Shown in pieces: positions 10,075 to 59,604 of a stretch of 64,000 nucleotides of DNA. The translations under genes and the position numbers were made by a program. A model generated the notes under the pieces. That model made no database searches, was not told the origin of the DNA, and worked only from the letters and a program-made list of their open reading frames with translations. Numbering within the stretch: position 1 is the first letter of the stretch; every line of letters begins with the position of its first letter. Origin of the DNA: Candidatus Microgenomates bacterium (GTDB taxonomy: Bacteria; Patescibacteriota; JACPGU01); contig JACPGU010000001.1 in the NCBI GenBank assembly GCA_016188915.1, forward strand, positions 34,111-98,110, in the 5' to 3' direction.

Positions 10075-11381
10075 ATGGTTACTAGAAAAAATAAAATCGA
10101 ACTCCTCTCCCCCGCTGGAGATTTGCCGCGACTGAAAACCGCGGTGGCTTTCGGTGCCGATGCGGTTTATTGCGGCTTGCCCCAATGGAGTCTGCGCAAT
10201 ATCCGCGAGATTCAATTCAACGAGGAAACTATCCGCGAAGGTGTCACCTTCGCGCACGAGCGTGGAGTGAAAGTCTATGTTACCTGCAATATCTTTCCGC
10301 ACGAAAGCCATATCAAATTGCTAAAAAAAGATCTGGCAAAATTGAACAAGATCGGTTTTGACGGGATTATTCTCTCTGATATCGGTATGCTTTCTTTGGC
10401 AAAAGAATTTGCTCCGGATATTCCGATTCATCTCTCAACTCAAGCCAATACGACGAATTCCGAAGCGATAAAAATGTGGCAAGTTTTGGGCGTGAAAAGA
10501 GTAATTTTGGCGCGGGAGCTATCTCTCTTAGAAATCAAAAAAATCCACGAAGCCGTGCCGGACATAGAGCTGGAAATCTTTGTCCATGGTGCGATGTGTA
10601 TGGCGTATTCCGGGCGTTGTTTGCTATCCAAACATTATACCGGTCGCGATGCCAATCTGGGCGATTGCGCGAATTCCTGTCGATGGAAATATCAAGTAAA
10701 GAACAAGGCACCGGAAAAAGTTTTCGTGCAAGAAGAAAGTCGGCCGGATGACGCGCTGGAAATTTCGGAAGATGAGCACGGGACTTATTTTATGAATGCC
10801 AAAGACCTTTCCGCCTTGGATATTTTAGACCAAGTGCTGGATAGTGGCGTGGTCTCGGTGAAAATTGAAGGGCGGGCCAAAAGCATTTATTATGTCGGTA
10901 TGATTACGCGCCTTTACCGGCAAGCGTTAGATAGCCTTTACGCCGGTAAAAAAGTGGATGAGAAACTTTTTGCGGAATTGGATATGGTGGCCAATCGTGG
11001 TTACAACCACGGCTTTTTACTCGGTCGCGATGGCTATGAGCAAGAATACGATGTGGCGGCGATCAAACCAAATCTTGATTTCTTGGGACAAGTGTCGGAA
11101 GTTCAAGATTCAAAGTTTAAAAATTATGATATTAAAAATTCTTTAAAAATTACAAAATTAAAAATTAAAAATTACGTTCTTGTCGAGGTAAAAAATAAAT
11201 TTGCCGTGGGTGATGAGGTGGAAATAGTGACGCCGGACCAAATCGTTAAAACAAAAATTACCGAGATTTTTGATAATGGCAGTTTGGTTTCCGAGATCAA
11301 AAAACCCGGTGAAATGGTGGAAGTTTCCTTTGCTATAGGCGAAGGCGTTCCCCCCTACTCTCTAATCAGAAGGAAGAAAAA

Positions 11382-11385: not shown

Positions 11386-12780
<1,395 letters not shown>

Positions 12781-13596: not shown

Positions 13597-13661
13597 TAGC
13601 TGTCGTTATTGTTATCTTTACATTCTATCAAAAAAGCGGGTTTTTGTCCCGCTTTTTTGAA

Positions 13662-14790: not shown

Positions 14791-14805
14791 AGTTTTCTGG
14801 AGAGA

Positions 14806-15393
14806 TCAACTCTCCAATGCTTCCTCCCACCCTTTGATGATTTCTTCCAAGAGAGGCCTCACTTTCTCGCATTTCAGAGCTTCTTGGAATATCTTGATGG
14901 CGTCAGAGTCTCCCTCACGCACCAGATCCTTCAGGATATCAATGGCGTGGCGGTTCCCCTCTCTCACCAGATCCTTCAAGATCTTGATGGCATCATGGTC
15001 TCCCTCACGCATCAGATCCTTCAGGATATCAATGGCGTGGCGGTTCCCCTCTCTCACCAGATCCTGCAAGACCTTAGCGGCGATGAAGTTCCCCTCATTC
15101 ACCAGATCCTTCAAGATCTTGATGGCATCATGGTCTCCCTCACGCACCAGATCCTTCAGGATCTCGATGGCGCTGGAGTATCCATCATGCACCAGATCCT
15201 TCAGGTTATCAATGGCGTGAGGGTCTCCTGTCCGCACCAAGCTCTTCAAGACCCCGGTGGCGCGGAGGTCTTCTTTGCGCACTTGTTTTACCAGGTCCGC
15301 TATTTCTATTTCTTCTTCCCTCCTCTTGGATGCAAAACGTTCGAGAAGGGCATCAAGCCGTTCTTGTAAAGCCACCAGCAGTTCATTTGACAT
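14806..15393 (-). CDS. Tandem-repeat alpha-helical protein: about 8 copies of the 15-aa unit AI(D/K)ILKDLVREG(D/N)(H/R)(H/D), giving a 45/90-nt DNA period.
   Basis: G-rich RBS (aagggggggggaaagactg) before ATG 15393; terminator downstream. The antisense ORF 14686..15369 is also open but lacks start signals. Confidence 0.55.
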   Translation of the reverse strand: MSNELLVALQERLDALLERFASKRREEEIEIADLVKQVRKEDLRATGVLKSLVRTGDPHAIDNLKDLVHDGYSSAIEILKDLVREGDHDAIKILKDLVNEGNFIAAKVLQDLVREGNRHAIDILKDLMREGDHDAIKILKDLVREGNRHAIDILKDLVREGDSDAIKIFQEALKCEKVRPLLEEIIKGWEEALES

Positions 15394-15528
15394 CAGTCTT
15401 TCCCCCCCCCTTAGCCCTTTTATCAAGGAACAGTATTTCCCGATAATATATCGAGATATTGGCATTATGCTAAAAAACCCTAATATTAGCAAATAGTTAT
15501 GTTGTTTCTTGACCTATAGAAACTACTC

Positions 15529-15559
15529 AAAAGGGGCGGGTTAGAAACCCGCCCCTTTT
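15529..15559. terminator. Bidirectional terminator (aaaaggggcgggtt agaa acccgcccctttt) 3' of rplL.
   Basis: Perfect 13-bp stem with an A-run and a T-run. Confidence 0.7.
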
Positions 15560-15607
15560 GAGCTACTAAATTCTAAATCCTAAACACTAAATTCTAACCC
15601 CTAAACG

Positions 15608-15988
15608 CTATTTCAAAGCCACTTTCCCTCCTGCCGCTTCGATCTTCGCTTTCATATTTTCGGCGTCTTCTTTTTTCACATTTTCTTTGAGCATCTTCGG
15701 CGCGCCGTCAACCAAGTCCTTGGCTTCTTTGAGTCCCAATTCCGGCAAAACTTCACGGATCGCCTTGATGACATTGATCTTGGCTTCGCCCGAGGCGGTT
15801 AGCTCGACATTGAAAGCGGACTTTTCTTCAGCAGGTGCGGCTGCTTCTCCCCCGCCGGCTGGCATGGCTCCCATCATCATTGGGGCGGCCGCAGTCACAC
15901 CGAATTTTTCTTCCAAAGCCTTCACTAATTCAGCGACCTCGGTTAGCTTCAACTTTTCTATTTCCTCTACGATTTTGTCTATTGCCAT
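15608..15988 (-). CDS. rplL: 50S ribosomal protein L7/L12.
   Basis: [31 protein letters not shown]...[12 protein letters not shown] aggaaggag before ATG 15988. The ORF track extends to GTG 16036 through an AAAATT array. Confidence 0.9.
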
Positions 15989-16031
15989 GATAATCTCCTT
16001 CCTACAAATAATTTTGTAATTTTTAATTTTG

Positions 16032-16096
16032 CCCACGCCTTTGGCGGGGTCCCGCCTACTATTTTATTCTCAAAAAGATGTGGCGGGATAATTTTG
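16032..16096 (-). repeat. Copy 1 of the ~65-nt conserved core element, located in the rplJ-rplL spacer and flanked by AAAATT arrays.
   Basis: About 85-98% identical to 34252..34316 (same strand) and to 51235..51298 (reverse complement). Contains mutually exclusive GC stems: ggcggg/cccgcc/ggcggg. Confidence 0.8.
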
Positions 16097-16173
16097 TAAA
16101 TAAATCTTAATTTTTAAAAATTGAAAATTTAAACATTATTTAAAAATTCAAAAATTAAAAATTGAAAAATTTC

Positions 16174-16692
16174 TCAAACCTGTTTTTCCGAAACTGCCTT
16201 CAAAACATACACCAGTCTTTGGGCAAAATTGTTCATTGCGCCAGCGAAATTATTCCCCGGAGCTTTGACGACCCACAAGAGCTTGGTAAGCAATTCTTCT
16301 TTGTTTGGCAGGTCAGCCAAGGCCTCCATTTCTTCACGATTCAAGAATCGACCTTCATAAAATCCACCGAGGATTTTGATGTTTTCATTTTTCTTGCCGG
16401 CTTTCTTGACTTCTTTCGCGACCGAGACTTCGTCTTGATTGGAATACGCCAAGGCTAGAGACTCTCCACCGACGATTTCTTGGAGTTTTTCTTTGTCGCC
16501 AAAAGCCAATCCCGCCAGAGAAACTTTGGTGACAGTGAATTTCCCGCCTTTGCTTCTCAAAGTTTTTCTCAAGGAATCCAAATCTTCCATCTTCATTCCT
16601 CGATAATCGGTGAAAGTGATGGCTTTGGCGCCGGCAATCTGCTCTTTGATTTTCTCCAGATCTGATTGTTTTTGGAGTTTACTTTTCGGCAT
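16174..16692 (-). CDS. rplJ: 50S ribosomal protein L10.
   Basis: L10 family sequence; start MPKSKL with RBS aaaggaaaaag (ORF track start 16743). Confidence 0.85.
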   Translation of the reverse strand: MPKSKLQKQSDLEKIKEQIAGAKAITFTDYRGMKMEDLDSLRKTLRSKGGKFTVTKVSLAGLAFGDKEKLQEIVGGESLALAYSNQDEVSVAKEVKKAGKKNENIKILGGFYEGRFLNREEMEALADLPNKEELLTKLLWVVKAPGNNFAGAMNNFAQRLVYVLKAVSEKQV

Positions 16693-16876: not shown

Positions 16877-17470
16877 TTATTTGCCCAAGATGCGAAGCAA
16901 CTGGGCTGAAAAAGGTAAGGCCTGATGGCCATGAGTAGTCCAGGGAATATTCTGAACTAATTTCTTTGCATCATCAGGAGTAAGGGTGATGTTGCTTTGA
17001 GCAAGGCGCTGGAAGAAATCCGAGAGTTCTCTTTTGGCATTTTCCAAGATGCCCTCTTCCATCTGGATTCTTTCAGCTGCCAACCTCTCCCTGCCTCCTT
17101 TGATGTGAAGGAGAATTTGCTCAAGATTGAGCAAGATTTCTGGTCGATCCGAGCCTTCTTTTGATGACCCGAAAGATGATGGGAAAAGTTTTTCTATTTT
17201 TTCCAAAATATCACCTATGGCTCGGCCAACTTTCGTTCCGTCTCCCATGGCCATAATGTGAAAATCCTCACCCAATTCATCAGATACTTCTTTTTTGGCC
17301 ACATCAACCAAATGCTTAATGTCGCTCAAAAGTTTTTCGCCTTCCAGGATTGATCTCTTTGTTAAAAGAGCCTGGATATCGGTGAAAAGTTTGGTCAAGT
17401 GCCGATCTACCATCTGATACGCCAACTCCCATCCATCGGAGGAGCCGGTCCTTTCTTCTCTGGCGTTCAT
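16877..17470 (-). CDS. Hypothetical protein (197 aa).
   Basis: ORF only. Confidence 0.45.
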   Translation of the reverse strand: MNAREERTGSSDGWELAYQMVDRHLTKLFTDIQALLTKRSILEGEKLLSDIKHLVDVAKKEVSDELGEDFHIMAMGDGTKVGRAIGDILEKIEKLFPSSFGSSKEGSDRPEILLNLEQILLHIKGGRERLAAERIQMEEGILENAKRELSDFFQRLAQSNITLTPDDAKKLVQNIPWTTHGHQALPFSAQLLRILGK

Positions 17471-17613: not shown

Positions 17614-19416
17614 TTAGCGCATAAGAATATGCGTTTTGAGTTTGGTGTTAAATTGATCTATTTTGGTGGCATTACCCTTGGTCGTCATCGTGCAATTGCC
17701 AAGTTTCGTTTTGCCGGTACATTCTGCTTCGCCAATTTTCTCACAATCAGTGATTCTACCATCAGAATCAAAAGACAAAGGTCCCTCCTGGTCGCAGATG
17801 GTAAAGATATCGCCTATCTCAATCGCGTCCTTGTCTCCAGTCGCAAGATAGCACCCCAGGGACATAGTGTCGTTGTTGAAGCAAAAGAAATCGTTCGGCG
17901 TAATCTCTAAAACATACGACTTGGTATTGATGGTGAATTTGTAATCGCAAGGATCACTCATGGCGAACAAATCATCGTTACTGCCGGAACAACCAGAAAT
18001 TTCAGCTGGCAAAGGATGAAAATGCAAAAGACTTCTATCCTTCATAAGCATATTGGGATGACGGCAGCCAGCAATAACAGAGCCTTTTTTCAAAAGGAGC
18101 TCCGATCGGCATAAAAAATAAAAAGACATTCTCTCCTCTACTTTGTCCGCGGTCTCAAAATTGTAGCTCTGACCTTCTGTTGATGCCTTGACTATTCGCG
18201 CGACGATTCTGCCGGATGAAGAGATTTTGTTTTCTTCATCTTTTAAAATCACCGGTCCATTAGTGCGAGGAGTTTCTTCTCCAGCTTTGGGCAGACGAGG
18301 CATTTCGCCAGTCAGCAAAAATGCCGAAGTGATCATTACATAGGGAATCTCCAGAACATAATTGGTAGTCTCACGCAGAATTTCTCTGTCAGTGAAAGAA
18401 AAATCATACCAACCATTGCGGTTTTTGATGATATCCAGCTCTTCGTATTTTTCTCCGTTTTTATAGATGATAAGGCTGGACATAGGATTGAGCAAAGAAT
18501 TTTCACGAGTCTTGAAGCGACCAAATATCTTTGCTTTTCCCTCCTTTACTTCAGAGACTATTTTGCTGGGAGCAGGATCTATCTCCAATTGAGTGATCCC
18601 GCGAGTAGCAATAGTAGAGTGCTCAGACAGAGCCGCCAAGATAGATTCTTGGCTTTTGGTGGCAGCTACAAAAGTTGCCACGCTCTCCCCTGTCGGCAAA
18701 TTAAAAGTGGAGCCAGCTAGTTTACTGTGATAGTCAGCTCCGCCGATGGCGGCTGGCCCGCTATCTTTATTCTGCGCGGACAAAAAAGCCCGGAGATGAT
18801 AGTCGTAATTGTCCACATAGCCAGTAGCGCTAACATCATTCATTAGCTCAAAGCCATCAAAAAGCCGTAAATTATCTTCCCATTTTCGGCAATCTTTCAG
18901 GTGGTTTAAGATGGTAAAAGATTTTTCGCCCTGTAAAATAGCTAAAACTTTTTCCAAATCTTCTTCTCTGTAGGCCGGGTCATAGAGATAGAGATTGGCC
19001 GTTTTGGAGATAGCGTTCAGATGACAATAGCTTTCAGCGGGAACTTTTGCCACCACTATTTCGCGGCCAGCGATAGCGACAAAATCAGAATCGTTCAATC
19101 TTTTTACTGCCTCTAGATAATCCCCAAAAGAATTCACCTCTGGATGCTCATGCGGATAAGGCAGAATATTGGCGAGCCGAATATCTTTATGTCCAGAGGC
19201 GTAGTCGGTCAAAAAACAATCCGCGTGGTCGGTGAAAATAATAGCTTCATAGCCTAATTTCTGCGCTATTTCTTTGACTTTTCGCGGGCAATTGGTGCCA
19301 TCGGAATAACAAGTGTGAACATGCACCCATATTGGCAACATTTCCGACGAATAAATCGCACCTGAAAAAATCAAAAAAAATAGAATCCCCCATATACCAA
19401 CAGCCGTTTTTTTCAT
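17614..19416 (-). CDS. Secreted/membrane-anchored PHP-domain metallophosphoesterase with a Cys-rich C-terminal domain.
   Basis: N-terminal TM segment/signal peptide. PHP motif IWVHVHTCYSDG...IIFTDHAD. The C-terminal ~150 aa carry >12 Cys. Confidence 0.6.
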   Translation of the reverse strand: MKKTAVGIWGILFFLIFSGAIYSSEMLPIWVHVHTCYSDGTNCPRKVKEIAQKLGYEAIIFTDHADCFLTDYASGHKDIRLANILPYPHEHPEVNSFGDYLEAVKRLNDSDFVAIAGREIVVAKVPAESYCHLNAISKTANLYLYDPAYREEDLEKVLAILQGEKSFTILNHLKDCRKWEDNLRLFDGFELMNDVSATGYVDNYDYHLRAFLSAQNKDSGPAAIGGADYHSKLAGSTFNLPTGESVATFVAATKSQESILAALSEHSTIATRGITQLEIDPAPSKIVSEVKEGKAKIFGRFKTRENSLLNPMSSLIIYKNGEKYEELDIIKNRNGWYDFSFTDREILRETTNYVLEIPYVMITSAFLLTGEMPRLPKAGEETPRTNGPVILKDEENKISSSGRIVARIVKASTEGQSYNFETADKVEERMSFYFLCRSELLLKKGSVIAGCRHPNMLMKDRSLLHFHPLPAEISGCSGSNDDLFAMSDPCDYKFTINTKSYVLEITPNDFFCFNNDTMSLGCYLATGDKDAIEIGDIFTICDQEGPLSFDSDGRITDCEKIGEAECTGKTKLGNCTMTTKGNATKIDQFNTKLKTHILMR

Positions 19417-19437: not shown

Positions 19438-19944
19438 TTAAGGAATTTTCAAAGAATCTAAAATTTTTTGAAAAACTTTTTCTCCATCAGGGTAGGTATT
19501 TGGATTATATCCAAAACCGATGCTATACAAATATTGATTAGAGATAAACTTTATGTCGAAAAGTCGGCCAGCAGTCACGTCTGGTTTCTCAAAAGTTCTC
19601 AAAAAAGCCTTTTTGCCGGAAATATTAATCTCTTCGCTTTTTATTTCATTACTTTTAGTATCGGCTAGTTCTTTTTCTTTCTCCACGTGGATAGTGATCT
19701 CTGCCCCCTGGCGATATTCCAGTGTTGTATCAGTCAGCAAACCATTAAAATCAGGCGTGGCAGCGCTCCAAGCATAAATAAAATCCCCTCCTCTATTTTC
19801 GTTCTCCTGCCAAGCGCCTGGCAAACTCAAAGAAAAATACTCATTTTTTATTATAGAATTGGCCTTAAAGGTTTGGGAGATCAAAAAACCCGCTAAAATA
19901 GCAATGGCGACAAAAATAATTAATTGAAAAATTATTTTTTTCAT
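19438..19944 (-). CDS. Membrane-anchored hypothetical protein.
   Basis: N-terminal TM helix; ORF only. Confidence 0.45.
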   Translation of the reverse strand: MKKIIFQLIIFVAIAILAGFLISQTFKANSIIKNEYFSLSLPGAWQENENRGGDFIYAWSAATPDFNGLLTDTTLEYRQGAEITIHVEKEKELADTKSNEIKSEEINISGKKAFLRTFEKPDVTAGRLFDIKFISNQYLYSIGFGYNPNTYPDGEKVFQKILDSLKIP

Positions 19945-20700: not shown

Positions 20701-21126
20701 TTATTTTTCTACTTCTACTCCCATTTGGCGAGCACTGCCTGCTATTATTTTTACCGCCCGATCAATATCTTCAGTGTTAAGATCCGACATTTTGGCGCGA
20801 GCTATTTCTTCTGCTTGCGCGCGAGATAATTTGCCTACCTTTTGTTTGTTGGGCGTACCAGAACCCTTCTCCAATTTTAGCGCTTTTTTAATCATATCCG
20901 TTACCGGAGGCTGTTTGGTAATGAAGGTAAATGATCTATCCTCAAAAATAGTAATAACAGCCGGGATTACGGCATCGCCCATTTCTTTAGTGCGTTCGTT
21001 AAATTCTTTGCAAAAATCCATAATATTGACGCCATTTTGCCCCAATACTGAACCCACCGGAGGAGCAGGGTTGGCCTTGCCGGCAGGAATTTGCAATTTG
21101 ACGATAGATTTGATTTTTTTAGCCAT
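20701..21126 (-). CDS. rplK: 50S ribosomal protein L11.
   Basis: [25 protein letters not shown]... Confidence 0.9.
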
Positions 21127-21276
21127 AATGTTGTATAATTTTTAATTCTTAATTTTTTAATTTTTAAATAATGTCCTAAATCTTAATTTTTAAACTCAAA
21201 CGCTTTTGTATTCGTTTAGAAATTAGAAAATTGAGATTTATTTAAAAATTAAAAATTACAAAATTTAAAAATTTGA

Positions 21277-22017
21277 TTATATTTTTTTCACCTGCAAGAA
21301 ATCCAGCTCTACCGGGGTCTCGCGACCGAAGATGGAAACCAGCGCCTTGACCTTGCCTTTCTCTTGATCAACTTCACGGACGATAGCCTCCATATCTTTG
21401 AATGGTCCATCGGTGATTTTGACCGGATCGCCTTCCTCCAGATCAATCTTGTATTTTGGTTCCTCCACGCCCATTCTTTTTAAGATAATATCTACCTCAT
21501 CTTCATCGATGGGCACAGGATCGGAGCCAGTACCGATAAAGCCAGTCACATTGGGCGTATTGCGAACAACATACCAGCTATTTTTGGTCATAATCATATT
21601 AACCAAAATATATCCTGGAAAAATCTTTTTTTCTACTTTACGTCTTTTGCCTCCGCGAATTTCTATCTGTTTTTCTTTGGGAACGATTATATCAAAAATT
21701 TTGTCTTTCATATCCAAAGTTTCAATCCTGTGGCGCATAGCTTCAGCGACTTGATCCTCGTAGCCGGAATAAGTATGAACGACATACCATTGGCGGTGAG
21801 TATTGCGATCTTTATCTTTTTCTAGGATTTTACCAAAAGATTTTTTTTCTTTTTCTTCATCGCTTTCTTCTTCCCCCTCCCCTTCCATCATTATCTCTGC
21901 TGCCTTCTCTTCAGATTTCGGCATTTGATCTTCTTTGGGCAAATCAGAAGACAGGTCATCTATGACTACCTGATTGCTCTCTGGCTCATTTTTATTGCTA
22001 GTGATGTCGTCTGACAT
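21277..22017 (-). CDS. nusG: Transcription termination/antitermination factor NusG with an acidic N-terminal extension.
   Basis: NGN and KOW motifs (WYVVHTYSGYE...; GDPVKITDGPFKDMEAIV). Confidence 0.85.
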   Translation of the reverse strand: MSDDITSNKNEPESNQVVIDDLSSDLPKEDQMPKSEEKAAEIMMEGEGEEESDEEKEKKSFGKILEKDKDRNTHRQWYVVHTYSGYEDQVAEAMRHRIETLDMKDKIFDIIVPKEKQIEIRGGKRRKVEKKIFPGYILVNMIMTKNSWYVVRNTPNVTGFIGTGSDPVPIDEDEVDIILKRMGVEEPKYKIDLEEGDPVKITDGPFKDMEAIVREVDQEKGKVKALVSIFGRETPVELDFLQVKKI

Positions 22018-23091: not shown

Positions 23092-23119
23092 AACAAAAAA
23101 CCCGCCACTGTGTGGCGGG
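23092..23119 (-). terminator. Rho-independent terminator (cccgccac tgt gtggcggg + T-run) for gene 23146..23598.
   Basis: Stem-loop followed by a T-run on the minus strand. Confidence 0.6.
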
Positions 23120-27824: not shown

Positions 27825-27852
27825 AGCCCCGCCTCTTACCAGAGGCGGGGCT
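27825..27852. terminator. Bidirectional terminator (agccccgcctct tacc agaggcggggct).
   Basis: Perfect 12-bp stem between convergent genes. Confidence 0.7.
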
Positions 27853-28834: not shown

Positions 28835-29377
28835 CTATTTCACTAGTGCCGTTAGATAATCCAATTCTTTTTCGTCGGCTAATTTCTTTTTGGCAAAAAT
28901 CTCAACAGTTTTGGCGTGGAAAGCATTGTGGCGCTCTTCCTCGCCACGAATAGCGGAAATAATTTTTTCTTCTGACGCGCTGACTTTGGCATCTATTTTC
29001 TTATCAATGACAGAAATAATCTTTTCTTCTGACGCGCTGACTTTGGCATCTATTTTCTTATCAATGACAGAAATAATTTTCTCTTCCGATGCGCTGATTT
29101 TCTTATCAATGACAGAAATAATTTTCTCTTCCGATGCGCTGACTTTGGCATCTATTTTCCTGTCAATCATGGAAATGATTTCCCCCTCGGCTTTTCCCAC
29201 TCTCCTATCGGTGTAATCTTTGAGCTCGGTTTTTAAGCCTTGGGTTTTTTCATCAACAATTCTCTCGACCATATTTTCTACCGCAGGTAATAAAACATCC
29301 TCAGCAAATTCACCGAGCTTTTCGGTCAAAGTCTCACTCAGTTCTTTCTTGGTGACATATTGGTTTTCTTCTGGCAC
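28835..29377 (-). CDS. Tandem-repeat coiled-coil protein: four near-identical 20-aa units (KIDAKVSASEEKIISVIDK-like; 60-nt DNA period).
   Basis: Near-perfect 60-bp nucleotide repeats at ~28960-29200. Confidence 0.5.
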   Translation of the reverse strand: MPEENQYVTKKELSETLTEKLGEFAEDVLLPAVENMVERIVDEKTQGLKTELKDYTDRRVGKAEGEIISMIDRKIDAKVSASEEKIISVIDKKISASEEKIISVIDKKIDAKVSASEEKIISVIDKKIDAKVSASEEKIISAIRGEEERHNAFHAKTVEIFAKKKLADEKELDYLTALVK

Positions 29378-33208: not shown

Positions 33209-33248
33209 TTTAGAAATTAGAGTAATTAGAAATTAGGTCAATTTTTTT
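33209..33248. promoter_or_regulatory. TTAGAAA / TTAGRNYAA heptad array (TTAGAAATTAGAGTAATTAGAAATTAGGTCAATTTTTTT) upstream of the NYN gene.
   Basis: Same motif family as 28099..28216 and 47324..47358. Confidence 0.4.
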
Positions 33249-34750
33249 ATGATTTTCTTGGCCACCACTAAACCCTCCTTCTTTTTCTGGAAAGTTCCTT
33301 CTAATTGCTGATTATAAACTTCCTCCAGCACTTTTCCAACTACTTTATTACCACTAGTTATCCCCATGAGCTTCATAATGTCGTGACCGGTAATGATTGG
33401 TTTCGGCAAGGGCTTCTTGTTCTCTTCCTCTTCCAGCCAAGACTTGGTTCTGTTGTAAACCGTTAAGTCTGGCGGGAGGATTTGCCCTCTTTTGTTAGTT
33501 CGCAGAGACGAATTGGCGTCCACCCAGAAAAGTTCCAGCAAGTCCGGGAAATAGGGGTGTTTCAAGTACATTATTTTGCGAGCCTCCCGCATTTTGGCTA
33601 GATTGCCAAAAAGCATATGATATTGGACGAGCCATTGGGCTTTGTCAATCTCTTCCCGAGAATATTTTAGTCGGCGCATGATTACTCCCGTCATCTTCGC
33701 GCCGAGAACGTCGTGCCCCGTGAAACGAACGCGGTCAGTGCCGTCTTTTTCTGGGGTTTGAATAGTGTAGGCTTTGGCTAGGTCGTGAAAAAGCACGCCC
33801 AAAGCATAGATGGGGTCGTCGTGCTTTCTCATATTTTTCAGGCAAAGCAACATATGATTCCAGACCGTGCCTTCGGCGTGATGAGAGGGCGGTTGATCGC
33901 AGGTGTGCGACTTGTCTATTTCCGGGATGATGAAATGGAGCAGACCAAGGTCGTCGAGCAATTTTAGCCCATGGCTGGGATTGGGCGAGGTCAAGATCTT
34001 GTTCAGCTCGTCGCGAAGGCGTTCGCCGGAAATTTTCGTAATATCGGCAGAGTGTTTTCTGATCGCGTCAAAGGACTTTTCTTCAATGACGAAATCCAGT
34101 TGCGCGGCAAATCTTGTTGCCCTCATCATTCGCAGAGCGTCTTCTTTGATCCTCTCCTCTGGTTCTCCGATGAATCTGATTGTTTTGGTCTTGATATCGG
34201 CAAAGCCATCAACATAATCAATGATTTCTAAATTTTTAATTTTTAATTTTCCCCACGCCTTTAGCGGGGTCCCGCCTACTATTTTATTCTCAAAAAGATG
34301 TGGCGGGATAATTTTTAAAGAATTTTTGAATTTTGTAATTTTTAATTTTGGATTTTGGATTTTTGCCACCAGTCCATTGATAGTAAAATCACGACGCAAG
34401 ACATCTTCCTCTATCGAAACATTGAATTTTACTTTTTGCGGGTGGCGCTGATCGGCTGTCCCATAATCACTCCTGAAAGTGGCGATTTCAATCAGTTGGT
34501 TGGTTTTTTTCGTCAAAGGCACGATGGCCGCCACCACCCCAAAGCTCTCCCCTATTTCAATATGCTTGACCTTGTTTTTATCCAAAGCTTTGATCGTCTC
34601 TTCCGGTGTGGCGGAGGTAGCGATATCAATATCGTGAATTTTTCGTCCCATAATCTTGTCGCGCACATACCCACCGGCAAACAAGGCAGTGTGACCTGCC
34701 TTTTCTAAAATTTCAATAATTTTTCCAGCGTTTTTTTCTTGGAGAGTCAT
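33233..34750 (-). CDS. cca: CCA-adding tRNA nucleotidyltransferase with an HD domain. Carries an in-frame ~45-aa insert encoded by the repeat element.
   Basis: GGYVRDKIMGRKIHDIDIAT, RRDFTINGL motifs. HD region HHAEG...HDLAK. The insert ...[26 protein letters not shown] lies after the RDFTIN motif. Confidence 0.85.
   Translation of the reverse strand: MTLQEKNAGKIIEILEKAGHTALFAGGYVRDKIMGRKIHDIDIATSATPEETIKALDKNKVKHIEIGESFGVVAAIVPLTKKTNQLIEIATFRSDYGTADQRHPQKVKFNVSIEEDVLRRDFTINGLVAKIQNPKLKITKFKNSLKIIPPHLFENKIVGGTPLKAWGKLKIKNLEIIDYVDGFADIKTKTIRFIGEPEERIKEDALRMMRATRFAAQLDFVIEEKSFDAIRKHSADITKISGERLRDELNKILTSPNPSHGLKLLDDLGLLHFIIPEIDKSHTCDQPPSHHAEGTVWNHMLLCLKNMRKHDDPIYALGVLFHDLAKAYTIQTPEKDGTDRVRFTGHDVLGAKMTGVIMRRLKYSREEIDKAQWLVQYHMLFGNLAKMREARKIMYLKHPYFPDLLELFWVDANSSLRTNKRGQILPPDLTVYNRTKSWLEEEENKKPLPKPIITGHDIMKLMGITSGNKVVGKVLEEVYNQQLEGTFQKKKEGLVVAKKIIKKLT
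34252..34316 (-). repeat. Copy 2 of the ~65-nt conserved core element, in frame within cca and flanked by AAAATT arrays.
   Basis: Differs from 16032..16096 at about one position over 65 nt. Confidence 0.8.
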
Positions 34751-34892
34751 GTGGGATAGTGGATAGTGGATAGTGGATAGTGAATAGACTTACTTTGACA
34801 GAATGATGATATTATACCATTTTTCTCGGGCAAAACAAAAAACCCGCTGGTGAGGCGGGCGAACGCGGAATGAGAACCCGTAAAGGGTGGGT

Positions 34893-42216: not shown

Positions 42217-42248
42217 GAGTATTAAGTATTATGTATTAAGTATTGAGC
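42217..42248 (-). promoter_or_regulatory. TTAATAC heptad array immediately 5' of the clpC start codon.
   Basis: Minus strand reads CTCAATACTTAATACATAATACTTAATACTCGCC-ATG. Confidence 0.45.
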
Positions 42249-42450
42249 ATATGGCGATAAAAGTCCATACTCCAAATGTGCATATTGGCACTCTAAATAT
42301 CCGAGTGCTAATATTATTATATTGCTCCCGCAAAAAGCTGTCAAGATGGCGGAGGGTCACCGTAAAATTTCCCAAAAATATAGTCCTTTGGACTGATTCT
42401 CGCCTACTTAATTGATGGGTGGGGGTTTTTATTTTACTATAACAAAAAAA

Positions 42451-45437: not shown

Positions 45438-45450
45438 GGGTTTGGGTTAG

Positions 45451-45472
45451 TATTAAGTATTAAGTATTAAGA
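45451..45472 (-). promoter_or_regulatory. TTAATAC heptad array (x3) 5' of the nusA start codon.
   Basis: Minus strand reads CTTAATACTTAATACTTAATACTAACCCAAACCC-ATG. Confidence 0.45.
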
Positions 45473-49652: not shown

Positions 49653-49690
49653 CCCCAATTTGCCTGGGGAATGTTTCTTGTGTTATATTT

Positions 49691-49722
49691 ATACCTAATA
49701 CCTAATACTTAATACCAACTCC
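49691..49722 (+). promoter_or_regulatory. TTAATAC-type heptad array ending ...TTAATACCAACTCC immediately before ATG 49723.
   Basis: ATACCTAATACCTAATACTTAATACCAACTCC-ATGG; near-identical to the context at rpmF (58252..58284). Confidence 0.45.
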
Positions 49723-50382: not shown

Positions 50383-50931
50383 ATGAAAAATAAAAATAAT
50401 AAAGCCTGGCTTTTTTCGATTTACCTTGCGTTAGCTTTTTTTGTAGCTGTTATTTTTTATTCTAATACTTCTTTTTTTTACAAAAATAATGCCAATATAG
50501 CGGAATGGAAGACCTATATCAATCAAAATTATGGCTTCGGTTTGCGTTATCCAAAAAATTGGGTGTATGAATATGACGATTCGGACGAAAGAGGTTTTGG
50601 CGTAAGCGATGGATTGAGTTTTTATCTTGACTCTTCACTTGCTTCCAATGTCAACCTAGATAGCAATGATTATTATCTTAAGATAAACATCTACAAAAAT
50701 GATCAAAAATATCCCCTGCAAGATTTTGTCGCCAAAGACGCGAAGAGTGAATTGATTGATGCTGGTGAAAAAGGATTAGTTTTGGTCGTTGACGCGGTTG
50801 CTTCTTCGGAAAAAAAGTATTATTTCCAAACCAATTATGGCTTTGTAATCGCTTTTGAATCAGGCAATAATCTGCCTAAAAAAACTTTTGATACTATATT
50901 CAAAAGTATAGAAATTTTAGCGACCAATTGA
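50383..50931 (+). CDS. Membrane-anchored hypothetical protein.
   Basis: N-terminal TM helix; ORF only. Confidence 0.45.
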   Translation: MKNKNNKAWLFSIYLALAFFVAVIFYSNTSFFYKNNANIAEWKTYINQNYGFGLRYPKNWVYEYDDSDERGFGVSDGLSFYLDSSLASNVNLDSNDYYLKINIYKNDQKYPLQDFVAKDAKSELIDAGEKGLVLVVDAVASSEKKYYFQTNYGFVIAFESGNNLPKKTFDTIFKSIEILATN

Positions 50932-52265
50932 TGATAAAGGCAAAAATAGAAAAACTAGTTTTTGGCGGACAAGGTCTTGCGCACATTGATGCCAAGACCT
51001 TTTTGTTATGGAACGCTTTGCCGAGCGAAGTGATGGAGGTGGAAAACTGGAAGAAAAAAGCGGGGATTTTTGATGGTATTGCGAAAAATATCATGGGGCC
51101 TTCTCCTCGCAGAATAGAGCCGAAGGAAAATCATTTCCTCTCCTGTTCTCCGTGGCAAATAATGGACTGGGAATACGAAAACGAACAAAAGATAGAGATT
51201 GCCAAAGAAACCTTTGAAAAAATTACAAAATTAAAAATTGTCCCGCCACATATATCTGAGAATAAAATGGTAGGCGGGATCCCGCTGGAAGCGTGGAAAA
51301 ATTTAAAAATTACGGCTAACAAGTCGTCTTACGGTTATCGCAACAAAATGGAATTTTCTTTTGCGGAAACGGATGGACAGATAACGCTGGCGCTTTTTGG
51401 TCGTGGCTCACACGAGAAAGTGCCTCTCACTGGTTGCGAATTGGCGCATCCGGCTATTAATAGAACTGCGCGAGAAATTTTGGCTTGGATCAATGAAGCG
51501 AAAATTCCTCTCCGCTCACTAAAAACTTTGATTGTTCGTAGTAATCAAAAAGGCGAGACGCTTGCGGGATTGTTTTTGAAAGATCGCCTACCGCAAATTG
51601 TCGCAAATTTAAGCGAATTATCACAAAAAATACAAGGCTTCTGGATCTATTATTCCACGCACCAGTCCCCTGCTTCCGTGCCAACCGAGTTGCTCTATCA
51701 CGAAGGCGCGGATTTTTTGGAAGAAGAAATTTTCGGGAAAAAACTGCGCTATGGACTCTTCAGTTTTTTTCAAGTCAATGTGCCGGTTTTTGCCAAAGCT
51801 CTCGCGGATATGGCGGATTTTGTTAAGGATACCGCGAATATTTTGGACTTATATAGTGGTGTCGGCGCGATAGGGATTTGCTTGGCTGATAAAAATCAGC
51901 GTTTAATTTCGGTTGATAACAATGAGGAGTCTATTAATTTCGCTAAACGAAATACTGGACTTAACGGAATGAAAAATTGCGAGGCCATTATCGCTTCCAC
52001 AGAAAAAGCGCTAGATCTGATAATGCCAGATCAAATATTGATTTTGGATCCTCCCCGTTCTGGCTTGCACAAAAAAGTGATTGAAAAAATCCTGGAAATT
52101 CAGCCCAAAAAAATAGTTTATTTATCATGTAATCTCTCAACCCAAGCCAGAGATGTGTCTATGCTTAATACTAATTACTTAATACTTGATACTAGTTTGT
52201 ACAATTTCTTCCCCCGCACTCCACATATTGAGGGACTAGTAATTTTGGAGAAAAAAGAGACCTAG
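50928..52265 (+). CDS. RumA/TrmA-family 23S rRNA (uracil-5-)-methyltransferase. Carries an in-frame insert encoded by the repeat element.
   Basis: TRAM-like N-terminus; SAM motifs LDLYSGVGAIG, DPPRSG. Insert ...KITKLKIVPPHISENKMVGGIPLEAWKNLKIT. Confidence 0.8.
   Translation: MMIKAKIEKLVFGGQGLAHIDAKTFLLWNALPSEVMEVENWKKKAGIFDGIAKNIMGPSPRRIEPKENHFLSCSPWQIMDWEYENEQKIEIAKETFEKITKLKIVPPHISENKMVGGIPLEAWKNLKITANKSSYGYRNKMEFSFAETDGQITLALFGRGSHEKVPLTGCELAHPAINRTAREILAWINEAKIPLRSLKTLIVRSNQKGETLAGLFLKDRLPQIVANLSELSQKIQGFWIYYSTHQSPASVPTELLYHEGADFLEEEIFGKKLRYGLFSFFQVNVPVFAKALADMADFVKDTANILDLYSGVGAIGICLADKNQRLISVDNNEESINFAKRNTGLNGMKNCEAIIASTEKALDLIMPDQILILDPPRSGLHKKVIEKILEIQPKKIVYLSCNLSTQARDVSMLNTNYLILDTSLYNFFPRTPHIEGLVILEKKET
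51235..51298 (+). repeat. Copy 3 of the ~65-nt conserved core element (reverse complement relative to copies 1 and 2 on + coordinates, so the same orientation relative to its host gene).
   Basis: aaaattgtcccgccacatatatctgagaataaaatggtaggcgggatcccgctggaagcgtgga is about 85% identical to the reverse complement of 16032..16096. Confidence 0.8.
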
Positions 52266-58214: not shown

Positions 58215-58251
58215 TTTACAAAAATAGCTTTTTGTTCTATACTCAATACGT

Positions 58252-58284
58252 TATACTTAATACTTAATACTTAATACCAATTCA
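58252..58284 (+). promoter_or_regulatory. TTAATAC heptad array (x4) ending ...TTAATACCAATTCA immediately before the rpmF ATG.
   Basis: TTATACTTAATACTTAATACTTAATACCAATTCA-ATGG. Confidence 0.45.
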
Positions 58285-58473
58285 ATGGCCGAGCCGAAAA
58301 AACGTAAAAGCAAGGCGGCGACTAGACTGCGCCGTCGTAAAAACCAAGAAATTACTCTTTCTGGTGTTTCCCTGTGCCCGCAATGCAAATCTCCCTTTAC
58401 CCCTCATCGAGCATGCGGAGTTTGTGGCACATACAGGGGAAGACAAGTGGTCAAGGCTAAAACTAAGAAGTAA
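58285..58473 (+). CDS. rpmF: 50S ribosomal protein L32.
   Basis: MAEPKKRKSKAATRLRRR...CPQC...C..CG.Y zinc-ribbon L32. Confidence 0.85.
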   Translation: MAEPKKRKSKAATRLRRRKNQEITLSGVSLCPQCKSPFTPHRACGVCGTYRGRQVVKAKTKK

Positions 58474-58566
58474 TTTTTATAATTTTTAATTTTGTAATTT
58501 TTGAAATAATTCCTTAATTTCTAATGTTTAAAAATTAGGATTTAAGGCTTATTTAAAAATTAAAAA

Positions 58567-59433
58567 TTGGAAATTAAAAATTTCAAATCTATGCCGTACC
58601 TTTCTATTCGCCATCAATCAAGAATTATTGTTCTCCAGTCTCTCTACGAGTGGGATTTTGATGAAACTAAAAATCCTCTAGATATTTTGAATCGCAACGT
58701 TAACACTTCTGGCTACAAAGTAGATGATGAGTTTTGTCAAAAATTGCTGTCTGGCGTGACTGATAAAATGAAAGATATAGATGAATTGATTAAAAAAACC
58801 GCTCCTGAATGGCCGCTAGAACAAGTAGCTGTTATTGACCGATCGGTTTTGCGGATCGGTATTTTTGAATTACTTTTTGACAATGAGGTGCCTCCCAAGG
58901 CCGTTATTAATGAAGCAGTAGAATTGGGTAAATCATTTGGTGGAGAAAATAGCGGTAAATTTGTTAATGGAGTTTTGGGCACAATTTATAGAAATAGCGC
59001 CAAATATGCCGAGGAAGAAATGGTGACTTCATCCGGCGGAATAGTTTATCGCCTAGACGAAAACAAAACTATTTATTTTTTGGCTATTAAAAATATTTAT
59101 AATAAATGGACATTCCCAAAGGGAAAGGTAGAAGAAGGTGAAACCTGGCAAGAAGCCGCTATTAGAGAAGTAAAAGAAGAGACAGGGATAGAATCGGTGG
59201 ATATCCAGGGAGAAATCGGCGACATCAAATTCACTGATAAATCTGACACAGAACCGATTAAAAAAACTGTTCATTTTTTCTTAATGCGAACGGAACAGAG
59301 AGAAACTAAAAAAAATGATGTCAAAGAGCATATCAATGATGTCGCTTGGATGACGGAAGAAAAATTGCGTCAAAATTTAGATTATCCGAATTTGGTTGAG
59401 CTTTTAGACAAAGCGAAAGAAATGATGGAATAA
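58567..59433 (+). CDS. nusB: NusB domain fused to a C-terminal NUDIX hydrolase domain. The probable start is ATG 58591; the first 8 codons of the ORF-track start derive from an AAAATT array.
   Basis: NusB region (QSRIIVLQSLYEWDF...) of about 150 aa, then the NUDIX box GKVEEGETWQEAAIREVKEETGI within one 288-aa ORF. Confidence 0.65.
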   Translation: MEIKNFKSMPYLSIRHQSRIIVLQSLYEWDFDETKNPLDILNRNVNTSGYKVDDEFCQKLLSGVTDKMKDIDELIKKTAPEWPLEQVAVIDRSVLRIGIFELLFDNEVPPKAVINEAVELGKSFGGENSGKFVNGVLGTIYRNSAKYAEEEMVTSSGGIVYRLDENKTIYFLAIKNIYNKWTFPKGKVEEGETWQEAAIREVKEETGIESVDIQGEIGDIKFTDKSDTEPIKKTVHFFLMRTEQRETKKNDVKEHINDVAWMTEEKLRQNLDYPNLVELLDKAKEMME

Positions 59434-59604
59434 GCGATGGCATAATTTTTGAATTTTGTAATTTTTAATTTTTAAACAAATTTTTAATTTCTTAATTTTT
59501 AAACATTAAAAATTGAAACATTATTTACAAAATTACAAAATTAAAAATTTTAAAAATTAATAACATGCGCTGTTCAATGTAGCTGTTTTGACAAAACAGC
59601 AATA

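Follow-up and report, generated by a model that had tools for sequence, protein, structure and literature searches.

A 57-Nucleotide Double-Hairpin Repeat in Conserved Genes and a Ribosomal Protein Operon Spacer of a Microgenomates Bacterium

Introduction

Among the closest described systems are the Rickettsia palindromic elements (RPEs), repeats of about 150 bp, confined to Rickettsia, which occur in unrelated housekeeping genes, where they encode in frame a conserved peptide that is compatible with the fold of the host protein; they are also found in non-coding DNA, and no transposase has been recognised for them (PMC10969869). The repeat described here lies in a 64-kb stretch of DNA from a Candidatus Microgenomates bacterium (the window, meaning the whole stretch analysed). 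It was likened to the RPEs in the original prediction, and the comparison is fair as a functional analogy.

Other short palindromic elements are relevant for comparison. REP elements are short GC-rich palindromes preceded by GTAG, arranged as paired adjacent hairpins; they lack target-site duplications, form sibling families with co-varying stems and are extragenic by definition. Enzymes of the Y1/HUH type move REPs and the ends of IS200/IS605 elements; those of the REPs are the RAYT transposases, whose genes usually have REPs on their flanks. MITEs are typically 100–400 bp long. The GC clusters of yeast mitochondria are short GC-rich palindromes in AT-rich DNA, occasionally located in coding genes, and the 'byp' elements of Magnusiomyces are translationally bypassed. 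Bacteria of the candidate phyla radiation have tiny, gene-dense genomes; even so, lineage-specific insertions that lack an explanation abound in their rRNAs and conserved proteins.

Results

Copies of the Core in the Window

The core of the repeat is present in three copies, named c1, c2 and c3. Their positions and those of their host genes, the latter assigned with Pfam, are as follows.

16032..16088, minus strand: c1 core (57 nt, TCCCGCC...GGCGTGGG), non-coding, in the rplJ-rplL spacer; 82.2 bits with the covariance model
34252..34308, minus strand: c2 core, in frame in cca, encoding a 19-residue stretch that follows RDFTINGL; 78.4 bits with the covariance model
51241..51297, plus strand: c3 core, in frame in the RlmD-like methyltransferase gene, encoding VPPHISENKMVGGIPLEAW; 75.9 bits with the covariance model
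15608..16692, minus strand: rplJ-rplL operon segment, with a spacer of 185 nt (15989-16173)
15608-15988, minus strand: rplL
16174-16692, minus strand: rplJ
33233..34750, minus strand: cca (CCA tRNA nucleotidyltransferase), with PolyA_pol head, RNA-binding and HD domains
50928..52265, plus strand: RlmD/TrmA-family RNA uracil-C5 methyltransferase (tRNA_U5-meth_tr)

The conserved unit is 57 nt long and GC-rich, and contains two hairpins; its ends are fixed only to within 1 nt. The copies are solitary, 17–18 kb apart, and a covariance model built from the family did not find a fourth one in the 64-kb window. Positions 16046-16095 of c1 and 34266-34315 of c2 are identical over 50 nt, for which there were no matches in 100 dinucleotide-preserving shuffles. 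BLASTN aligns c1 with c2 at 97.5% identity over 79 nt and c2 with c3 at 85.4% over 82 nt, in inverted orientation, c3 being the most diverged window copy (about 85%). An independent repeat search of the window recovers the same pairs (D9, I1 and I2). BLASTN, repeat search and shuffles thus bear out a repeat that was originally predicted, at these places, to be present three times. Its predicted core length of about 65 nt has to be revised to 57 nt, the extra bases belonging to the adjacent AT array.

The two intragenic copies are translated without stops, the cca copy as a 23-residue stretch and the methyltransferase copy as KIVPPHISENKMVGGIPLEAWKN; the translations of both open reading frames confirm what had been proposed in this respect. 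All three copies have a common orientation relative to the host transcript, c1 being in the sense orientation relative to the rplJ-rplL operon. A shared orientation had likewise been proposed; it holds for the window copies but fails as a rule for the family, since copies from other genomes (L013, L015 and L016, described below) are antisense.

The context of c1 is independently confirmed by two Logan assemblies that reproduce it: contigs L006 and L007 (SRR12113420 and SRR12113422) both encode an identical RplL. Both contigs start inside the core, at the first 31-mer telling c1 from c2, which is a branch point for k = 31. The exact cca protein is absent from the records of these assemblies because the core breaks de Bruijn assembly, splitting the gene.

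Regarding the neighbourhood of c1, the usual nusG-rplK-rplA-rplJ-rplL cluster is not continuous: rplA and rplJ are separated by the gene for a PHP-domain protein of 600 residues (17614-19416) and by two open reading frames without a Pfam match (16877-17470 and 19438-19944). A replication origin, considered in connection with strand bias versus transcript bias, was discarded as an idea, as the gene at the strand switch is RadA and not DnaA.

Architecture and Folding

Four copies of one 6–7-nt GC half-site, in the order a-loop-a'-a-loop-a', make up two adjacent hairpins, giving the layout TCCCGCC-loop-GGCGGGA-YCCCGCC-loop-GGCGG(T)GG. In full, this reads TCCCGCC ACAT-(15-18 nt AT-rich loop)-GTA GGCGGGA YCCCGCC NNN GGCG(G)TGG. 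Hairpin 1, TCCCGCC(AC)...(GU)A GGCGGGA, has a variable AT-rich loop, and hairpin 2, YCCCGCC-NNN-GGCG(G)UGG, contains a bulged U. The GC stems that had been anticipated are recovered by RNA folding: every window copy is predicted to form the two GC hairpins, with energies of −21 to −26 kcal/mol and z-scores of −2.4 to −3.3 relative to shuffled sequences.

In an alignment of eight sequences, pairing is satisfied in 97.7% of cells, versus 34–56% when the partners are slid. Hairpin 2 shows covariation: pair 42-59 is CG four times, UA three times and UG once, and pair 48-52 is CG six times and UA and UG once each. Five of the eight aligned copies were retrieved with hairpin 1 and GTAG fixed in the search pattern, and the invariance of hairpin 1 is partly due to this ascertainment. 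An alternative outer pairing, GCCAC/GUGGC, is not preserved in either L013 or L015. Conservation tracks the DNA half-sites and not the amino acids; although divergence among the three window copies reaches about 15%, each of them retains the TCCCGCCACAT and GTAGGCGGGA motifs.

The antisense strand of the core reads GGCGGGGUCCCGCC and then UACUAUUUUA and came out as terminator-like in a terminator scan. Its central feature, for c1, is the following.

16043..16056, plus strand: palindrome in the middle of the core as it reads in antisense, GGCGGGGTCCCGCC then TACTATTTTA, terminator-like

Elsewhere in the window, hairpins resembling intrinsic terminators (13636-13652, 15525-15563, 23101-23119, 27828-27849 and 34843-34859) use GGCGGG/CCCGCC stems with A and T tracts, that is, the half-site of the core; the one at 23101, CCCGCCACTGTGTGGCGGG, has the CCCGCCAC start of the core.

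The AT-Rich Arrays

AT-rich arrays of the AAAATT type, with a periodicity of 7–8 nt (AAAATTNN), flank all three core copies.

16089..16178, no strand assigned: AT array beside c1; repeat families D2, D4 and D7, inverted pairs I7, I9 and I10
16002..16031, no strand assigned: second AT array flanking c1, directly before the ribosome-binding site of rplL
34309..34364, minus strand: AT array read in frame in cca, upstream of c2 (KIQNPKLKITKFKNSLK); related species also have an array here
34214..34251, minus strand: AT array read in frame in cca, downstream of c2 (KLKIKNLEII)
51212..51240, plus strand: A-rich flank upstream of c3 (EKITKLKI)
11108..11176, plus strand: 'empty' array, without core, in frame in the U32 peptidase gene

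The array in the U32 peptidase gene corresponds to the flanks of c2 at 39 of 40 bases (11134-11173), with exactly the 57 nt of the core missing (alignment A9). A further in-frame, core-less array lies in tgt (11861-11930) and was confirmed at the DNA level; three other stretches of the tgt protein look array-encoded. Between genes, four palindromic array blocks of about 130 nt are found, at 16002-16178 (the one holding c1), 21124-21291, 58458-58588 and 59441-59568. The arrays in the U32 peptidase, tgt and cca genes translate as loops rich in K, I, N and L. At the cca site, related species have arrays of their own made of different units (e.g., AAATTAC repeats in L017), and more distant relatives have none. 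As the arrays of the related species are without core, the cca array predates the core.

The repeat had been described as a composite element. Arrays do flank each copy, but they are separable, occurring core-less in the U32 peptidase gene, in tgt and in the intergenic blocks. These sequence comparisons put the AT arrays in a repeat class distinct from the core, of greater age and wider occurrence, into which the core is inserted as a 57-nt unit. Because the array flanks are of low complexity, short apparent direct repeats (AAAATTA) are uninterpretable.

Several other repeats were observed in the window. Heptamer arrays, (TTAATAC)n, are present at 42218-42258, 45447-45470, 49689-49722 and 58237-58285, and also at 52158-52197; such an array precedes the start codon in at least three genes, and an ATG at 58286, by 8–12 nt, examples being TACCTAATACCTAATACTTAATACCAACTCCATGG (49723) and TATACTTAATACTTAATACTTAATACCAATTCAATGG (58286). 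Their role may be that of tandem −10-like boxes, serving transcripts with a short leader or none. The open reading frame 14806-15492 (minus strand) has seven tandem 45-nt (15-residue) repeats at 14792-15286, LKDLVREGD.HAI.I, with a long overlapping open reading frame on the opposite strand, and the open reading frame 28835-29377 (minus strand), which has no Pfam match, contains a 102-nt direct repeat three times (28938-29198), with spacings of 57 and 102 nt.

Orthologous Sites and Structure Predictions

The core peptide is absent from all of the 26 closest cca homologues aligned, and the insert is absent from all 18 aligned RlmD homologues; in the segment bounded by ETF and YGYRNK, the RlmD-like protein of the window exceeds typical orthologues by 19 amino acids (57 nt). 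In the nearest species, from Hainich groundwater (GCA_964355795.1; 76% and 62% protein identity for cca and rlmD, respectively), the core is also absent at the DNA level, and the cca site has only an AT-rich array. These alignments support the view, already taken in the original prediction, that the core is a repeated element inserted into its hosts rather than an ancestral domain.

At the rlmD site of the sister species (L008, around 10290-10340), AAAATTG arrays surround a short GC hairpin, CCTGCCTCGCCGGCAGGCGGG, which may be either what remains of a decayed copy of the element or the product of a separate insertion at a hot spot. Given this hairpin, c3 could be old and decaying, not recently mobile. 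The same species contains two copies of another palindromic repeat (GGTTCGACCT ... AGGTCGAACC; L008 5198-5248 and 13315-13352), which suggests that each lineage has its own hairpin families.

AlphaFold predicts both host proteins confidently, with a mean pLDDT of 88.2 and pTM values of 0.83 and 0.87. In the cca protein, pLDDT falls below 50 only at residues 135-164, and in the RlmD-like protein it is about 60 at the insert (residues 101-120, approximately). The confinement of low values to the inserts in otherwise confident folds indicates that the inserts are loop excursions, in agreement with the surface-loop placement first proposed.

When 1.84 billion representative proteins were searched exhaustively with a profile of the peptide, no convincing full-length copy of it came up; the best weak multi-stretch matches were translated CRISPR arrays and leucine-rich-type repeat proteins. 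The profile had no match in an index of 5.8 billion proteins, but there the cca protein of the window itself (P0001) was likewise missed, which makes this negative uninformative. A relationship with CRISPR was rejected, since the core copies are solitary and do not form a regular array; the likeness is limited to a CCCCGC...GCGTGGGGAAA-type hairpin (P0241 and P0243). These two sequences have the motifs GTPPRAWGK, VHPHGRGEN and RYTPTGVGKT, which would be three frames of one CRISPR-type repeat translated through the array.

Copies in Other Genomes and a Sibling Element

JGI metagenomes were searched with a relaxed pattern fixing hairpin 1 only, TCCCGCCACAT N10-25 GTAGGCGGGA. Seven loci were obtained, six of them true (five distinct sequences, as L010 and L011 are the same); L014, in a ThiF/MoeB gene, is a chance pattern match. 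YCCCGCC-NNN-GGCGGTGRYA, which lies outside the search pattern, is kept in six of the seven loci. The exact pattern GAGAATAAAATNGTAGGCGGGA had no match in JGI metagenomes, and in species-representative genomes gave only a chance match, in the EF-G gene of a Nitrospiraceae genome; it missed the family because the loop is too variable, and the stem-only pattern worked. No match was obtained in viral contigs. At gathering thresholds, Rfam has no match in the window; run in E-value mode, it yields nothing better than noise near c1 (E > 1). A literature search by sequence and topic found no report of such an element in Patescibacteria, in line with the initial impression that it was undescribed.

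The L012 copy is in frame in valS (LPPHLSNSIVGGTPPEAVAY), in a segment, corresponding to the stretch from residue 656 to residue 671 of PDB entry 1GAX, where the protein exceeds Thermus ValRS by around 27 residues. The L013 copy falls inside a 23S rRNA gene span and runs antisense to the rRNA; those of L015 and L016 are intergenic and antisense to the neighbouring genes. Across copies the element is 54–57 nt long, the version of other genomes amounting to 18 codons. The reading frame is identical in all three coding copies (cca, rlmD and valS), and non-coding family copies carry stops in it, suggesting that the open frames reflect selection after insertion. The L012, L015 and L016 copies have no AT arrays in their flanks, and no flanking direct repeats were found at copies outside arrays (L012 and L016).

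L013 contains two copies of one composite, consisting of a sibling element and an array, which are identical over about 100 nt on the left. They form a filled/empty pair with identical flanks (22 nt before and 19 nt after) and a difference of 53 nt; a single C is ambiguous at the junction, with no target duplication. The corresponding difference in the window is 57 nt, its loop being 3 nt longer than that of L013. Both differences imply precise insertion or excision without target-site duplication.

In the sibling family, represented by two copies in L013, all four half-sites are TCCCGAC/GTCGGGA and the layout is unchanged.

L013 3667-3733 and 4584-4650: sibling double-hairpin copies, one within the 23S span and one just upstream

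Such a concerted change of four half-sites points to mutual complementarity or to a co-evolving recognition factor. A group I intron (583-855) is likewise present in the 23S gene of L013, together with over 1.2 kb of additional sequence.

The distribution of the family is patchy: the covariance model found no copy of the core in about 96 kb of four related genomes (about 32 kb of the sister and 64 kb of three others). A scan for GC islands inside AT runs was crude and too noisy for use. Small GIY-YIG proteins are encoded in L016 (122-391), where the family copy directly precedes the gene, and near cca in a relative (L017 20621-20920); this proximity is probably coincidental.

Discussion

Taken as a whole, the core is probably a small, non-autonomous, structure-defined selfish DNA repeat of an RPE/REP-like kind. 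It would enter AT-rich DNA without target-site duplication, and the latest copying would have been between the cca array and the rplJ-rplL spacer. In essential genes it would be tolerated because 57 nt correspond to 19 codons, with one stop-free sense frame, placed in a disordered surface loop; the encoded peptide would then be neutral. Within transcription units only the observed orientation would be tolerated, the opposite strand presenting a GC hairpin and a U-tract, like a terminator, and the sense orientation of the three window copies would be explained in this way. Spread could be mediated by a trans-acting, hairpin-recognising enzyme of the Y1/HUH type, or could occur by copying between dispersed AT arrays acting as homology arms. 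No transposase or HUH domain was found among the 34 open reading frames of the window scanned with Pfam, which says little about the rest of the genome. This negative counts against the selfish-element reading, as do the low number of three copies in 64 kb and the lack of any in about 96 kb of related genomes. In a wider proposal, which we consider rather unlikely, the double hairpin would serve as the recognition module in a mobilisation system for single-stranded DNA that is specific for hairpins, REP/RAYT-like or entirely new. This system would be native to Patescibacteria, would have co-diversified (CCCGCC versus CCCGAC), and would colonise open reading frames, rRNA genes and AT arrays as a source of the lineage-specific insertions for which the group is known.

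The GC hairpin module may instead have arisen only once and been spread by ectopic recombination or gene conversion via the AT arrays, with no dedicated machinery. The near-identical flanks (20–40 nt) of c1, c2 and the empty U32 array fit such a history, as do the location of the L013 filled/empty pair within two copies of one duplicated composite, the lack of target-site duplication and the lack of a transposase among the 34 open reading frames. However, the copies of L012 (valS), L015 and L016 are without such arrays, and one core occurs with quite different arrays in different genomes, so array-independent insertion is needed at least sometimes; the retention of TCCCGCCACAT and GTAGGCGGGA at about 15% divergence would also go unexplained without a recognising factor. 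We regard spread through the arrays alone, with no dedicated machinery, as unlikely. A signal kept by the host, be it an RNase III or other processing site, an attenuator working through alternative half-site pairings or a protein-binding site, appears less likely still. The hairpins are predicted to be stable (z about −3), hairpin 2 covaries, the four half-sites permit alternative pairings, copies are present in a ribosomal protein operon spacer and in an rRNA gene span, and the antisense strand is terminator-like, all of which would suit a signal. Against it, orientation to transcription varies across the family, the contexts are unrelated (interiors of open reading frames, a spacer, rRNA), the orthologous sites of relatives are without core, Rfam has no match and the GCCAC/GUGGC outer pairing is broken in L013 and L015.

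It is highly improbable that the 19–20-residue peptide (PPH..ENK.VGG.P..AW) is a functional module gained by the host enzymes: the single frame used by cca, rlmD and valS and the conserved PPH...VGG.P motif are what a module would predict, but the near-identical c1 copy is non-coding, non-coding family members have stops in that frame, the models predict disorder for the peptide, it is the DNA half-sites rather than the amino acids that are conserved, and no homologous peptide was found among the 1.84 billion representatives. An assembly artefact or chimeric join deserves mention because the source is a metagenome-assembled genome and short-read assemblies break at the repeat; with both host reading frames intact through the insert, the c1 context reproduced in two Logan assemblies and related copies in independent metagenomes, we consider its probability very low.

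Read as a selfish repeat, the 57-nt element, together with the AT arrays, offers a concrete, sequence-defined source for some of the lineage-specific insertions of these bacteria (cca, rlmD, valS, tgt and the 23S span), and it extends selfish DNA inside protein genes, classically a Rickettsia peculiarity, to an unrelated phylum. The co-varying half-sites point to a recognising factor that should be findable by phylogenetic profiling. In practical terms, short-read assemblies fragment at the repeat, and marker proteins that carry it seem more divergent than they are.

Among known systems, the yeast GC clusters and byp elements differ from the core in that the core is bacterial and not from an organelle, and its length and frame allow plain read-through, with no bypass needed. 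With the palindrome-associated elements (PATEs) derived from IS200/IS605 and with other MITEs, the core shares its non-autonomous nature, very small size and AT-rich targets and, with the PATEs, hairpins at both ends and the absence of inverted terminal repeats and of duplication. PATEs insert 3' of a fixed tetra- or pentanucleotide; the 5' flanks of the core before T|CCCGCC (TTA, TTG, ATG, TTC and TTT) have no clear consensus. The core is far shorter than described MITEs and, unlike them, shows no target-site duplication, its filled/empty pairs having at most 1 nt of junction redundancy. Its inverted ends are limited to 6–8-nt GC half-sites (CCCGCC ... GGCGG(T)GG), with no long terminal inverted repeats, and no parent insertion sequence was identified.

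Features in common with REP/REPIN elements are the short GC-rich palindrome, the paired adjacent hairpins, the lack of target-site duplication and a sibling family with co-varying stems. GTAG precedes GCGGGA|YCCCGC in all three window copies; the other five aligned copies were pattern-selected for GTAG, and the sibling family has GAAG. In contrast to REPs, two of the three window copies and that of L012 are inside open reading frames, and that of L013 is in a 23S span. No RAYT-type domain was found in the 34 open reading frames scanned.

Like the RPEs (RPE-1 to RPE-10), the core is in frame in unrelated genes (cca, rlmD and valS), encodes a conserved peptide, spares the host fold according to the AlphaFold models, has non-coding copies as well and has no recognised transposase. 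Unlike them, it measures 57 nt instead of around 150 bp, about a third, belongs to Patescibacteria/Microgenomates, is built from four identical GC half-sites, is nested in AT arrays and has a family copy within a 23S rRNA gene span. Judged by size and phylum, it would fall outside the RPE families; we read it as a compact variant of the phenomenon of in-frame palindromic selfish elements, in a phylum for which we found no earlier report.
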